A stretch of 64,000 bases of DNA, from assembly GCA_965113315.1 (NCBI GenBank), contig OZ220363.1; one strand, written 5' to 3'. Below, piece by piece: positions 1,098-47,000 of this stretch (positions are counted from its first letter, which is position 1; every line of letters starts with the position of its first letter). The stretch comes from Podarcis vaucheri. Lineage: Eukaryota. The notes under the pieces were generated by a model. It was not told the origin of the DNA. It made no database searches and was given only the letters and a program-made list of their open reading frames with translations. A program made the translations under genes and the position numbers.

Positions 1098-3659
1098 TAG
1101 AAAATGAAAGGGTGGTGCTTATTTTCTTGTTAAGTTTTAAGGCTGGCCAAAGAAAACTGAGGCAAGGGTAAAAAAAGGGGGGATTTCAGTAGGAAGGAAG
1201 AAAATGTGGGAAATCCCAGTCACCCTCTTAGTGGTTTAAAGCCATCCAAAAGCCATACACAGCACAATATTATGATTTTAAAACAGGCAGATCGATGTAT
1301 CAGTCTGGGATTTAAAATTAGCAAAGTAAATGGCTCAGAGCTAAGGAAGGAAAGCATAAAGGAGACAGAAAGATGTGCCGAAAATAATCGCTTTTAGAGG
1401 TTGAGTAACATATGGTTATATTGGTTTCCCTTTTTTTCTAAATAGGGAGGTAATGTATTGTATCTCAGGACAGCAGGCTAGAACTCAAGCTCCACATATA
1501 ATTATGCCACATATACTTGCAACCATTGAACTAATCATAGCCTTTTTTCCTTTCCCCTTTATTGAAATCCAGCCCTCCCTCTCCTATTATTTTTACCTCT
1601 TGTTTCCCCTAAGTTCAGACAGCAATATTATCTGTATCTGCTTTCTTCCACTATTTCATATAAATGTCAACCACTCTATCTCGGGAACACTTCACTGACA
1701 CCTAACAATAACGTCATTAACACAGCCTTGGTTGCGATCCTATGCGTATTGACTAGGAGTGCACCTTTCCATTGCAAGCAGCAGGCCTTTATGCCCAAAA
1801 TAAAAGGGGAGGAGATACAACAGCATTTAGAGCATAACTCCTCGTTGGAGCATTAGTTCATCCTCAAAGGCTGCCATACCGAGAGGGCAAGCGCAATCCG
1901 TATTTTGGATCTCCACCAAAAGAGGAGCCAACCAGTAGAAGTGCTTGCCCCTGGTACATGATAGATTCAACATTTGCACAGGGAAACACGGCATGACTTT
2001 ATCCTGTTAAAATGCTAATCCTGCTCGTTAGCTGGAAAGAGCTTAAGAGAGGCACAAGATGGGCACCTTCACCTGCAATTATCTCCCCAGAAACTGCACA
2101 ATCAGCGTTTGCTGTGATCTGCAGCCACAGACCGCAGGAGGATGGGAGAGGGAGACAGAGAGAGAGAGAGAGCAAGCTTGAAGCCCCACGAGCCGTCCAG
2201 TACAAAACAGCCTTGCAGAAACAACCAAAAACACACCATCTCTGTTTACAAACTCAAACGTTTACAAGGCGATGTTTGGAAGCCCCAGCAAATTTTGCAC
2301 ACACGAAAAGGAGAGGGAAAAAAGTGCACTTACTGTAGACGCCCTTCCATTGTCCCGAACCTGTTGCAATGGGGGGAAAGAGGAGAAAGAAAATAAACAA
2401 AACCATTTCGTATTGTTGTTTTTCCATGTATAGATGATACTGATCATAGTTGGGGGGGGGGAATGCACGCATTGCATCTCTATTTAGATATGAGAATGTT
2501 AAGGACACAGGCAGGCATTGCATATAAAGGTGACAAATCAACACACTCCCCCCCTCCCAATTGCTGATTTGCCTCTTTTGTTAAATTCTTTTTGTAATAA
2601 AAGCCAGCCAAATTAAATATTTCAGTCAGAGTTATCATATAATTGTATACGATCATCCTTACTGCTAGTTTCAACTATGTTTCTATAAAATGTTTTATCT
2701 GATAAAGATATAAAGGATTCTTCCTCCAACTGAGTTAATCCCAAAGTGACAGAAATCTTACCAGCGTAGTGAATCCCTGAAGAGCCCTGGCCAGTATTTA
2801 GTCAGTAACCCGCTTGCTTAAAAATCCATACCATTTTCCCAACATGAACTTGTAAACATCATAATTATTATAGTAAATATATTTTACTGTTTACTTAAAC
2901 AGATTTCCCTTTTTCTGTCTGTGTCTTTCTTCTCTTATTGTAACAAATAAATTCTACATTACCACCCACGTGGAGAGAGAGAGAGAGAGACTGTTTAAAC
3001 AATGTTTTCAAAGAGAAACAACCAAGGTTGAGCTATTTTGAAAAACATCCCCTTCACTTTTGCCTGCGCTATCCCTGAGAAGGGCTGTATAGACACCCAG
3101 ACCAGCTTAAAGCAGGGAGCAATCATTCCATCGATGTATCATCTTATCTCTCGTTCCGTTCCTCCCTTCACTCTCCTTCTAGAATAACAGCCAGAACGCA
3201 GTGCCCTTGAAATCTCTGCAAATTAAACACTTAATGAAGGATCTACCGGCTTAAACCGAGGTTGGTTTCTTTCACAAAATTAAAATTAAAACCGTCGACG
3301 TGCGATTCACTGACAGCTCTCTTAAAACTTGGAGCAAATCCGAAGGAAATGCTATTCCTATAATACTTCCGGGCTTCCCTGGATCTGCTCTTTTCATTCA
3401 TATATACAGTTCCAGGGAACACTCAGACACACGGTCACTGGAGAGAGGGACTCGGTCACATATGGAGCGCAAGAAGAGACTTACTGTGAGCTTTGCCAAA
3501 GGGAAGAGGAAGGTACCCCCGGGAGAAGCAGAGGTCCTGGGCGCTTGGTTTCAGGCAGAGGTCTCCTGCCTAACACTTTCCCTGTCACTGCTCCCAGGAA
3601 CTAAAGCATCTGCACTTGTATGCTCTTAAACTAATTTATGGTGGGAATTATATTTTGGC

Positions 3660-35641: not shown

Positions 35642-36614
35642 TTGGGTCAAGTTGCTGCTGAGGCTTCTCCTCCTTCAGATCGCTGCTGGGGCTAGCATTG
35701 CGGCTGCAACCAGACGCTGGCTTGGCCGGGGTGGCGGTACTGCCGTTGCTGCTGCTGCTGCTGGTGGTGATATTGCTGGTGGCTGCAGCTACGGCGGCCG
35801 CAACCGGGAGAGAAGAACCGTTGCTCACTGTTGTTGTTGTTGCTGCCGCCGCCTTCTCGCGGGGCTCTGCCAGGAAGGAATTGCACGTGTACTCGGGCCC
35901 ATTGACCCCCGAGGGCTCCCTAGACGGCGCGCACTCAGTTCTTTTGGAAGGAGACTCGGAGCTGCAAGACGAGGAGGAAGAGGAAGAGGAGACGGTGGCG
36001 GAGGAGGAGGAAGGAGAGGGCCCCACCGGACCGGCGGCGGCGGCGGCTGCCCCGCTCTCCGGCTTGACGATCCCGTAGTGGCGCGCGCTGGAGGAGCCAC
36101 CGCCGGCGCCGTTGGAGGCGATGCTGGTCGTCGCCGCTGCAGCAGCAGCCGCAGCAGCAGCCGCGGCACTAGCGGCGGAGACGTTGCTGTTGCCTCCGCC
36201 GCCGTTGCCGGGGCTGCTGGGGAAAGAGGCGAAGGGCTCAATCCAGGAGCGTACGTATCTGCCTCCGCCGCCTCCGCCGCCCTCGCCCGGTCCGCCTAAG
36301 TGCGGCTGGGGCATGTAAGGGTGGTAAATGCCGGGCATGGGCGCCGGAGGCTGAGGGTGCACGGCGGGCCACGAGGCTGGGAAGACGGCCGACTTGGGCG
36401 CGAAGCTGCAGGAGGAGAAATCCGAGCCCTCGGCCACCACACCTGAGGATGGCCTGGGGGTCGCATGGTGACCTCCCTGCAGGAACCGGGCAGCCCCTCC
36501 GACGCCGCCGACGCCTCCTCCTGCTCCTCCGACGCCGCCACCGTACACTTCCTCGCTGTCGTGGCCTATGAGGGAATCGACATAGTAGTTACTGAGGGTG
36601 CCGCCGGTCGACAT
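35642..36614 (-). CDS. HOXD9: Homeobox protein Hox-D9, coding exon 1
   Basis: [66 protein letters not shown]. Donor CCAA|GTAAG at 35642/35641; 973 nt, phase 1. A weaker in-frame ATG lies at 36644. Confidence 0.95.
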
Positions 36615-36739
36615 TTTTTGGAGGCTCCCTCCGTAGCAGGGCATATGATGGGGGGAAGGCAAAAAAGGTTACTCTGTTAACTGTAGATGATCGCCTGGCC
36701 CGGAGAACAATCGTAGTATTTTGCAGGCGGCCAGGCTCA

Positions 36740-41272: not shown

Positions 41273-41550
41273 TTATGAGAAGGTCAGATTGGCGGTCAGT
41301 TCTCGGATCCGGTTCTCTCTGCTCATCTTCTTGAGCTTCATTCTGCGGTTTTGAAACCATATCTTGACCTGCCTGTCAGTGAGGTTTACGCTCTTACTGA
41401 TCTCTAGGCGGCGCTCTCGAGTGAGATACATATTGAACAAGAACTCTTTCTCTAATTCCAGTGTTTGATGTTTAGTATAGGGACACCTCTTCTTTCTGCC
41501 ACTCTTTGCAGTTAACCAATTGCTGGTTGGAGTATCAGACTTGATTTCCT
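41273..41550 (-). CDS. HOXD10: Homeobox protein Hox-D10, coding exon 2 (homeodomain)
   Basis: Acceptor CTAG|AG, then [91 protein letters not shown]. Confidence 0.97.
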
Positions 41551-43127: not shown

Positions 43128-43932
43128 CTTTGCTTTCCTTCTCTTGGGTTTCTGGGCTGGAAACGGAGGCTTCAGCCAGGCAGCTCCTGTCGTCTTGCAG
43201 CGTGGACTTAGACTCGGGACTTTCCACTTGAGAGACTTTGGCAGAGTTGTCTGAATGGTGGCTGCTGGTGCTGCTGGTGGTGTTGGTGGCGGCGGCGGCG
43301 GTGGCGGCGCTGCCGCTGTTGGGGTTTTCATTCATTTTCTTCTCCATCGGAAGTTGCGAAGCTATCTGCGGTTTGGAAGCGCCGCGAGGGTTTAACTGCA
43401 ACATGACAGTGGAACTCGTTTCGGGGCTGTTATGGTACTCTTGGGTTTTCCCAGTGGCGTAGGTCTGGCTCAGCCTGAAATATCCTGGGACGGGGACCTC
43501 GGGGTTTTCAATGGAGCACGAGTCAGAGACCAGCCTCTGGTATGAAGGGACGTCGGACGAAGACACCAGCTTGGAGCGCTTATCAGAATACATGCAGCAA
43601 TTGGTTTCTTCCTTAATATTTGTCGTGAAGGAGCAGGTGGGGACCTGCTGAGTAACAGGTTGCTCTATTCGGCAGGACCTGTTCGGATCAGTCCAGTTGT
43701 CTACTTGAGGTATATAAGGGTGTACATTCATACCCATATTTTGATGGTTGACTTCTCTCTTGGCCAGAGACGGTAGAAGTCCACAGGTTTGCATCCCATA
43801 AGTCCCAATGTCTGTGCTAGGTGGCATGTACATACTGGCGCTGTTGGAATAGAAACTATCGCTCCTGCAGGCACTGATCAAGGAATCGACTAGGAAAGTG
43901 TTGGCGGCAGGAGAGCTGTTGGGAAAGGACAT
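43128..43932 (-). CDS. HOXD10: Homeobox protein Hox-D10, coding exon 1
   Basis: [74 protein letters not shown] is diagnostic of HOXD10. Donor AAG|GTCGGT; 805 nt, phase 1. Confidence 0.97.
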
Positions 43933-44028
43933 TTTGGGGAGGAATTTGAAGAAGAGAGATTGTGTCCTTTGTAGGCTGACATCTCTACGAAAACATTCCC
44001 TGTGTAATTGTGGATGCCTCTGCACAAC

Positions 44029-44095
44029 CACATGACAGCTAAGCCAATGAGATTTGAAAATGGCCTTGAGCCGCTACCTCCCCGCCGGTCACGTG
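44029..44095 (-). promoter_or_regulatory. HoxD10 proximal promoter motifs
   Basis: E-boxes (GTCACGTG 44088-44095, CACATGAC 44029-44036), CCAAT 44044-44048 and YY1-like AAAATGGCC 44057-44065. Confidence 0.7.
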
Positions 44096-47000
44096 CTCCG
44101 CGGGACACTCCGGGCTGCGGCGCAAAGGTGGTCAACAGCGACATCTAGAACGTCGAGGAGAAAGTGCGCGCGCTCCTCCAAGCCTGGGAGCTCCAGCGGC
44201 GGCAGCAATATTAGTAGCAACCTTTTCCCCTGCTTTTTTTTTTTTGGTCCTTTTGCAAAGGCAGCCCTGGCGCACTGCGCTGATTTAAAACAAGGAAATG
44301 CGTTGAACTGATCTGACCCCCCCATACCCCCCCCAATCTCGCAACTCTATCGTTGTTGCTGCTGGGTTGTTGTTGTTTTGTTTTGTGTTTTGTGTGTGTT
44401 TTTTAACACCACAAAGGAGTTACTGTCCGAATTCAGGCTGATCCTGAGCCATGCCCCTTTGCTCCAATATCAATATATATATACATATATATGAGACAGG
44501 TACTTCAGGAAAATCCCTGGCTGGCTTAAACAGAGGCAAGGGGGGTGGGAGATGGACGCAGAGGCGCGCGCAGACACACAGAGAGATGGAGGGAGTGGGA
44601 AGGGGAGACGCATGCAATCCTACAAGGCGAAATATGTGGGTCTTCTTCTCATTCTCCCCACCTGTGAATAGTAATGGTGATGATAATAGTGATAAAAGTG
44701 GTTTCCCCGATCTCCAGTCCTCATGGTTGCCCAACATCTCCTTCAAGTTACATGAATTGGCGGCAACTGACGTCCTCAGAAGAGACGTCCCTAAGTCTCA
44801 GCCCTGGACAACACATCCTTCTCTTCTCCACTACTTCCTCCTTTCACTTCATAATCAAACACTTTCTAAAACAAAAGCCACAACATATAATAAAGGTCCC
44901 AAAAAAGTTGTGTGTGTTGTTTGTTTTTTGAGGGTGGACAGCTGACTATGTCTGAAGTGTAGGCGATCTCCCAACGTGTCATAATTTGGGGAAGATACAA
45001 AGGGGTGGTGGTAGCGGTGGAAATAATGTTACCTTTTATGGATTTTGTAAAAGCATTGGCTCCTGACAAGCGCAAGGTACAAAAGGTTGTGGAATTTATT
45101 AATACAGATTAAGAAGAATCAGAGCGATCAATAAAATCCTCATCTACATTCTTGAGCCACTTGGTAATTTTCTTGCTTCTGAAGCTTTTTCAAGAGTTAT
45201 ACCCTCTGTTGCCACACACGGGAAGATATTTTATTAACAAATCAATCGAGACTTTGTAAAGGATAAGATTAATAGTTAAGATTTAGCATAATGGTGTTCG
45301 CGTTATGAATTATTGAAAATTATACTATTGATTTTTCCTCTTCGCTGCTAACCAAGAAGGTCAATTTTTGTTTTAATACAAATCGTCAAATATTAAAAGC
45401 TAGGAAAAAAAATTTTGGTCATAAGTTTGGTTTTATAGCTCCAGCAGATTCCTAAAATAAAATAATTAATAAATAAGATGAGGGTCCTTTCTCATAGTAC
45501 ATAGGTGAAGAAATTCTCTTTGCCCACGAAAATGGCACCAGAGAAAAGGTAAAGTTTTCGTAGACGATGTTGCTGAACTTCACACAAAAAAACCCCCCAC
45601 ATATTCACTCACAACGCGGTAGCCCGCATCCCACAACGGAATCTGCTGGCTTCTTACATTATTTCATTACCCAACTTCATATCTATTAAAAAAGGGCGAT
45701 AATAAACACCTGAGCCCACCCCTCCCTAGTTCTTGACCACAGGAATCGTGGGCAACTCTACCTATGGAGAAATTTGGACGCTTCTTTCAAAATAGATTTC
45801 CCCACTTCGATGTTCATCCTTTCTTTTCCTTATATTTATACCCGCATCACTCCCTTTTCTTGAAACACAAGGGGACACATATCCTTGAAATTAAGGACTG
45901 TTCTCTCTCCCCCCCCCCCTCTCACCTTCGGGACTTTAAAAACATTCATATTTTCCCTCTCCTCCCCGCTTGTTTGGCAGTGTGTTTTTACTCCAAAGGT
46001 GTCTCTTTTATTCATAAAATGTCACACGCCGCACGCCACACAGGAACCATCTACTTGAGGTTAAATGTTGCCTTGAGTCCATCTATTTATTCCAGGCCTT
46101 GAGCTCATCCCTATCAGCAAACCTTCCTTCTCTCCTTTGAAATAAGAACCTCGGGGAAACTAAAACAGACCCTTTGAAATGGCACCCACGGCCTCTCCAA
46201 TGACTGCAAGAAGCTTAATTTTCCGTCCTGGTTTTTTCACCCTTATGTCTTTGGCACTTTGGGGGGCTTGCTTCACTTTCCCCCCTCTTCTTCGTCTTCT
46301 TCCTCCCCTATCCATTTGCCGAAAACAACCCCCTCGCCCCAGTTTGAAATCTCGCTGTGGCAATGAGACAGACCCTTTTTGAAAAAGCTTATCGCAGCTG
46401 TTCAAATACAACATCATTGTCAGGTTAAGAGCCGGTGGGTTTTACGGCTCCAGCCGCCTCTCTTCTCTCCCTCTGTCTCGCCCTCTCTCTCTATGGCTTC
46501 TGTGTTTGTCGGAGAATCTCCAGCTTACCTTCGTAAAATAAGCTACATTCCACCATCACCACCCCAGATAAACATTTTCTCTCTTTCTTCATGGACCCCT
46601 TTAAATTGCGGGTCCATAAGCCATGCCCTTGTCCTGGATAGGGGCTTAGAAATAAGGGACACAGCAACGCAAGGAAGCGGTGGTGGTCCCAGTGTAGGAG
46701 AGAGGATTTTTGTCCCCCCTCCTTTTCTCCAATTTGAGATCATTATCAGAGCCATTGCTAAGATTTTGTCTGAGCTGGGGAACAAACAAAAGTGGAGGTC
46801 ACTATGCTCCCTCTTTGGGGGCCGGCTTTTTATGTGCTTTCCAGCAATTTCCCTTCCTCCCCCCCCCCTTTCCCTCTCCCCTCAAAACAAGACGCCAGAC
46901 AACCCACCGAGTTTAAAGCAACCCAATACTATTTTCTGGTCTGCATTTTAAGACTTGACTGTGAAATCTAATCAGTTTTTTTAAAAAATAATAATAATAA

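Follow-up and report, generated by a model that had tools for sequence, protein, structure and literature searches.

The window analysed here, a stretch of 64,000 nucleotides from contig OZ220363.1 of the lizard Podarcis vaucheri, carries on its minus strand four homeoboxes of the paralog groups 11, 10, 9 and 8 and represents a part of the HoxD cluster. The gene starting at 43932 is identified as HoxD10 because of this set of homeobox groups and because its N-terminal 45 residues are 100% identical to those of named HoxD10 proteins; its coding exons and the features found upstream of them are collected in Table 1. The main ATG has A at -3 and T at +4, and the following in-frame Met codons of the coding sequence (CDS) are at 43833 and 43827. 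Exon 1 also encodes an Ala/Thr/Ser-rich low-complexity stretch (43250-43320, minus strand), and the lacertid HoxD10 proteins (357-361 aa) exceed their bird and mammalian counterparts (339-340 aa) by about 20 residues.

Table 1. Features of the HoxD10 locus in the window
Feature	Position	Strand	Remarks
HoxD10 coding exon 1	43128..43932	minus	main ATG 43932; donor position read from sequence
HoxD10 exon 2 with homeobox	41273..41550	minus	acceptor predicted from sequence
Overlapping HoxD10 uORF, 30 codons	43890..43982	minus	codons 1-15 in register with the HoxA10 N-terminal extension
Minimal HoxD10 uORF (MFS-stop), 3 codons	43985..43996	minus	64 nt above the main ATG
Proximal promoter-like block	43997..44150	minus	common to HoxC10, partly to HoxA10; putative promoter role by analogy with Hoxa9 (PMC9456764)

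The preliminary description of this DNA had drawn attention to an upstream ATG (uATG) at 43982, 50 nt above the main one, which opens a 30-codon reading frame overlapping the CDS out of frame, and all of this is seen in the sequence. The uATG reads GTAGAG-ATG-TCAG on the minus strand, a moderate context with G at -3 and T at +4; the distance of 50 nt (50 mod 3 = 2) puts it out of the main frame, the stop of the uORF ends 43 nt past the A of the main ATG, and a second stop in the same frame follows four codons beyond the first. A structural RNA element at 43880-44005 was considered and dropped, since the region folds no better than its shuffles (z -1.12, 28/200).

The 9-mer ATGTCAGCC is present in all three Hox10 leaders of the same genome; in 193 kb comprising the four Hox clusters, both strands counted, it occurs four times, three of which sit 48-54 nt before a Hox10 start. 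In HoxA10 the homologous ATG is found at -54, in frame and open, with MSARKGYLLSSPNYSTTA preceding the conserved Met, while in HoxC10 it is found at -48, also in frame, and opens only 10 codons (MSASGCSIPL-stop), with the stop 15 nt before the CDS. The promoter and leader can be aligned across HoxD10, HoxC10 and HoxA10. For the 70 nt before the main ATG, the D10-A10 pair gives a score of 45, which none of 2000 dinucleotide shuffles reaches, whereas the D10-C10 and C10-A10 pairs are marginal in the same test (93 and 97 of 2000). The scores of 18 control pairs with the leaders of Hox9 and Hox11 were reached by 265-1998 of 2000 shuffles in 17 cases and by 24 in the remaining one, A10-C11; a homology of the HoxD10 leader to the leaders of Hox9 or Hox11 is unsupported (265-1635 of 2000). 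Counted from the uATG without gaps, D10 and A10 agree in 31 of 45 nucleotides and, in register, in 10 of 15 residues, as compared with 8 and 5 of 15 in the other two frames. Since this gapless match runs through codon 15, the frame-changing deletion would have to lie within the last few codons before the main ATG. The differences fall on codon positions 1, 2 and 3 as 4, 3 and 7, and this small excess at third positions (7/14) is weak and could be produced by constraint on HoxA10 alone. Judged by these comparisons, the ATG at 43982 would be the HoxD10 copy of a start codon common to all three Hox10 paralogs, with the reservation that the pairings involving HoxC10 are marginal.

The homology of the uATG to the first Met of HoxA10, which had been proposed from the likeness of the first residues (MSA.KG), is thereby upheld by the shuffle test, the shared 9-mer and the alignable leaders, and the likeness itself is fuller than was claimed. 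A HoxA10 extension of 17 codons (51 nt), as assumed in that proposal, is the usual ortholog state (70 of 90 records), but in the present genome the extension has 18 codons (54 nt), and the supposed 1-nt difference between the two paralogs amounts here to 4 nt (50 versus 54). The contrast drawn between an in-frame A10 and an out-of-frame D10 stands as well, but has to be widened to a three-way picture. The 17-residue extension annotated in most bony-vertebrate HoxA10 proteins resembles the D10 uORF in its ATG, its first codons and its distance from the CCAAT box, and differs in being in frame and open, whereas the tetrapod D10 frame is shifted near its 3' end and the C10 frame of this genome, although in frame, is closed by a stop.

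Among the HoxA10 proteins (n = 90), 70 carry an extension of 17 residues and one of 18, whereas in 19 the annotation begins at the conserved Met; the query contained the extension, which biases the set towards extended records. The set spans teleosts, bichir, sturgeon, coelacanth, lungfish, amphibians and amniotes, and the 18-codon form of this genome is shared, among the 90 matches, only by Lacerta agilis. Six extension positions are invariant in 70 of 70 extensions, the invariant ones including M1, S2, R4, K5, L9 and P12. According to these records, the HoxA10 extension is in frame and conserved from teleosts to mammals. The human HOXA10 peptide given in the preliminary description agrees with the mammalian records, although the single record named as human starts at the inner Met, and a mouse Hoxa10 primer in the supplement of PMC9456764 has the same context at the A10 ATG. 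None of 51 HoxC10 proteins has an N-terminal extension. A deep search with the A10 N-terminus returned 10 matches, eight of HoxA10 type with the 17-codon extension and two unrelated, with no shark or lamprey among the named ones.

For HoxD10, 312 proteins were examined, of which 45 without the N-terminal motif (Hox9 members, fragments and fusions) were dropped, 221 start at the main Met and are uninformative on the leader, and 46 run through it. The records are not independent, an out-of-frame leader is visible only in models that the gene caller extended across it, and the residues of the main frame (Asp-Val or Tyr-Val) fix the spacing only, fitting ATG and ACG alike. In 36 of the 46 the leader as translated in the main frame agrees exactly with that of the window, which gives a spacing of 50 nt; 16 of these are named (15 placental mammals and a caecilian) and 20 unnamed, four of them bird-like. 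Spacing and frame are kept in 36 of the 37 tetrapod-type records spanning the leader and in all 15 named placental records showing it, within the limit that translations cannot tell ATG from ACG. The remaining tetrapod-type record, from Gekko kuhli, is in frame at 51 nt, is flagged UNVERIFIED_CONTAM and possibly contains an assembly indel; other gecko records start at the main Met.

The fish-type records behave differently. Sebastes fasciatus and S. umbrosus (P0149, P0212) are in frame at 60 nt (MSSYK...), and five unnamed records (P0147, P0200, P0208, P0210, P0211) at 57 nt (MSAYK...), which makes, together with the gecko, 8 in-frame leaders among the 46 informative records. Two out-of-frame leaders of 53 and 65 nt were found, and three more of 65 nt, so that the fish leader lengths are 53, 57, 60 and 65 nt; in one 90% cluster of fish proteins, among the 15 members listed, five are in frame and ten start at the main Met. 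The seven extended fish HoxD10a proteins begin at the homologous ATG with an in-frame extension of 19-20 residues and would be natural A10-like variants of D10, and the fish peptides point to slippage of a pyrimidine repeat within the leader. Accordingly, the out-of-frame state is not fixed in all HoxD10 orthologs, which counts in part against the preliminary description; the 50-nt spacing is kept in nearly all tetrapod-type records that show it but not in those of fishes. As far as the records go, the ATG region appears to be both ancient and shared, with a fixed frame in A10, an almost fixed spacing in tetrapod D10 and a labile frame in the D10 of fishes; the tetrapod spacing may, however, reflect hyperconservation of the whole leader rather than conservation of the frame.

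Whether the uATG lies in the mRNA is addressed indirectly by published data on mouse and human. Hoxd10 and Hoxc10 are among the 13 Hox mRNAs for which conserved uORFs in CAGE-defined mouse leaders were listed by Ivanov et al. 2022 (Hoxa1, a9, a11, b9, c4, c8, c9, a6, c10, d10, d11, c13 and d1), each scored uORF being checked against aggregate ribosome profiling, and both are given there as conserved from mammals to tetrapods (PMC8892498). Membership of that class requires the uAUG to be conserved in 90% or more of the placental mammals, and a context counts as suboptimal if it lacks a purine at -3 and/or G at +4 (PMC8892498). The lizard HoxD10 uORF shows two of the class features, an upstream AUG-initiated ORF and a suboptimal context, and it is like the listed uORFs in the presumably short leader and the AUG without G at +4. 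The mouse Hoxd10 uORF is likely identical with the present 30-codon one, the alternative being the 3-codon frame. The uORFs of Hoxa1, a9 and a11 inhibit reporters and respond to eIF1/eIF5, and reporter tests concern these three only in the passages covered (PMC8892498). Hoxa10 is absent from the 13 named genes, and the main text of that paper gave no hits for 'hoxa10', 'overlap' or 'homologous'.

In the human annotation, the 5' UTRs of HOXD10, HOXC10 and HOXA10 each contain one of the 5' hyperconserved elements of homeotic genes, of 70, 98 and 81 nt, respectively (PMC7484617). The human HOXD10 5' UTR is, therefore, at least 70 nt long. These elements are read there as sites of the RNA-binding protein RBMX, in contrast to the present reading, and start codons are not treated in the passages covered (PMC7484617). 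In Hoxa9, the distance from the CAAT box down to the major start site is about 60 nt (PMC9456764); from the CCAAT box to the uATG it is 66, 74 and 68 nt in the D10, C10 and A10 of this lizard and 69 nt in its HoxA9. The mouse CAGE leaders, the human 5' UTR annotation and this CCAAT geometry together suggest a short HoxD10 leader, with the transcription start about 5-20 nt above the uATG. A paper linking the Hoxd10 uORF to the HoxA10 extension, or stating the A10/C10/D10 homology, was not found in a search that missed most of the subscription literature; in the parts covered, the main text of PMC11317171 has no mention of HOX, and 10.64898/2026.03.29.707813, PMC3595034 and PMC3091776 contain nothing on Hox10 start-codon homology. 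A Hoxd10 uORF, probably this one, is already in print for the mouse, and the three-way homology of the start codon would be the new part.

On these grounds the out-of-frame uATG of tetrapod HoxD10 would lower the output of full-length HoxD10 by diverting a part of the scanning ribosomes, a reading to which a probability of about 0.6 is given. The uATG is expected to lie within the mRNA, close to the cap, and to be leaky, leaky scanning at a cap-proximal AUG of moderate context being the most likely mode. Under the scanning model, ribosomes starting at the uAUG would cross the main AUG out of frame and terminate downstream of it without making full-length protein, while those skipping the uAUG would start at the main AUG. 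Because the uORF stops beyond the main start, each initiation at the uAUG would cost one full-length protein; ribosomes might restart at Met34 or Met36, which lie 56-62 nt beyond the uORF stop, but with 30 codons already translated this is expected to be inefficient. Following the example of Hoxa1, Hoxa9 and Hoxa11, the output of HoxD10 is predicted to rise with stringent start-codon selection and to fall with lax selection.

The main rival to leaky scanning is a promoter element acting at the DNA level: the motif would be conserved as a downstream core-promoter or transcription-factor site of the three Hox10 promoters, with the ATG arising incidentally, of little consequence in D10 because of its closeness to the cap and made coding only in A10. 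Besides a CCAAT box 66 nt above the uATG, the promoter-like block comprises an E-box-like site and, at about -214, a 14-nt motif. The CCAAT-to-uATG distance of 66 nt in D10 is much the same in C10 (74 nt) and A10 (68 nt), which favours such an element, and HoxA9 has 69 nt. In a genome pattern search for the CCAAT box, E-box-like site and uATG motif together, only HoxD10 and HoxC10 matched (reversed control 0). The 14-nt motif, itself containing an ATG, is present in HoxD10 (window 44131-44146, minus strand) and HoxC10 (L002, about 1815-1828, minus strand) and not in HoxA10, and its core AGATGTC, recurring above the CCAAT box at about -214 in D10 and -221 in C10, is a further point for the rival. 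The ATG of this upstream motif is at -212, out of frame, in the lizard HoxD10 and in frame (-210) in many mammals, from which it follows that a motif of the AGATGTC type can be conserved without a fixed frame. The upstream motif, about 215 nt up, is likely outside the mRNA, and the annotated 410-residue HoxD10 models to which the mammalian in-frame ATG gives rise may be artefacts of read-through transcripts. The rival is also in line with the fish D10 leaders, whose frame and length vary while the ATG stays, and with the precedent of Hoxa9, where the supposed translational elements turned out to be promoter elements (PMC9456764). However, translation of the mouse Hoxd10 and Hoxc10 uORFs was scored in aggregate ribosome profiling (PMC8892498), and the D10-A10 match over 15 codons is in register. 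The DNA-level explanation is held to be rather improbable, and the promoter and translational roles are mutually compatible.

In HoxD9 and HoxC9 an E-box precedes a forward CCAAT box, and in the Hox10 promoters a reverse CCAAT box precedes the E-box-like site; the distance to the leader is similar in both. A study of Matsunami et al. 2010 is reportedly devoted to paralogous Hox elements and may cover the shared block. The ATGs at 44033 and 44144, in the uORF frame, were not taken as used starts, being near or above the CCAAT box. The genome locus L003 was rejected as a chance match; by eye, a retrotransposon-like reading frame apparently lies near its end.

In two-uORF leaders of the ATF4 type, a long spacer between uORF1 and uORF2 allows timed reinitiation. 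HoxD10 has likewise a very short first uORF and then an overlapping out-of-frame one, but the MFS frame stops 2 nt ahead of the ATG at 43982, and with such a spacer, which lacks the length characteristic of the ATF4 type, delayed reinitiation cannot toggle the second uORF. A different relay may still be conceived, in which ribosomes finishing the 43996 frame cannot reload initiator tRNA within 2 nt, skip the inhibitory ATG and restart at the main AUG 52 nt further on, the choice of transcription start then setting the repression. The arrangement is present in the sequence, an ATG of HoxA10 at -70 matches that at 43996 in the same frame relative to the CDS, and with 70 nt or more the human leader would reach past the latter ATG (PMC7484617). 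Yet the ATG at 43996 (-64) would lie within a few bases of the predicted cap, HoxC10 has no matching ATG, and the fish-type D10 records read Ile-Val-Phe at this place, which excludes an ATG there, so that the relay is judged unlikely. The -70 ATG of HoxA10 (L013, 5443 onward) opens an overlapping out-of-frame uORF of 104 codons of its own.

The least credible reading is that the uORF peptide, as a remnant separated from the N-terminal peptide of A10, is itself active, in cis by stalling or in trans by binding. Of its first 15 residues, 10 match A10, including the invariant M1, S2, K5 and L9, but D10 differs at R4 and P12, which are likewise invariant in A10, and an identity of this order is to be expected at 69% nucleotide identity (8/15 in another frame). 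The second half of the uORF is an alternative frame of the CDS, and C10 keeps only 10 divergent codons. Both the relay and the active peptide are less likely than the DNA-level element.

Among the posterior Hox genes, short in-frame extensions may be more widespread. An in-frame ATG stands 30 nt ahead of the conserved Met in HoxD9 (window about 36590-36620, minus strand), HoxC9 (L016-L017) has one at -24 (MNVKEGGT-M), and fish HoxD9a records begin with MSRKPSK-M or MSRKRSK-M. The HoxA11 leader (L015) has the known uORF at -40, of 11 residues, and in this lizard also an ATG at -24, which is in frame and would lengthen HoxA11 by 8 residues.

Returning to leaky scanning at the uATG, the same initiation event is predicted to have three outcomes: in A10 an extended isoform would be made, in C10 a short uORF would be translated with termination and reinitiation, and in D10 the ribosome would be lost. 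As A10 and C10 are both in frame, an in-frame ancestral state appears to be the simpler reading. A more extended scenario, offered tentatively and held to be possible but not probable, is that a single upstream AUG predated the Hox cluster duplications and served at first as an in-frame alternative start, from which one stop (C10) and one small deletion (D10) made three translational devices. In that case, the three Hox10 proteins would respond in different directions to a global change in start-codon stringency, by the isoform ratio in A10, a mild loss in C10 and a strong loss in D10, and slippage in the leader repeat would have returned D10 to the A10 state in some fishes.

The annotation is also at stake, as regards the start of HoxA10 at Met1 versus the conserved inner Met and the reality of the 410-residue mammalian HoxD10 models. 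The Hox10 proteins set the lumbar-sacral and limb pattern in a dose-dependent and partly redundant manner. If the above scenario is true, the frame switches of fish D10 would be natural experiments on Hox10 dosage, and one inherited start codon tuning each paralog differently would represent a compact form of paralog divergence at the level of translation.
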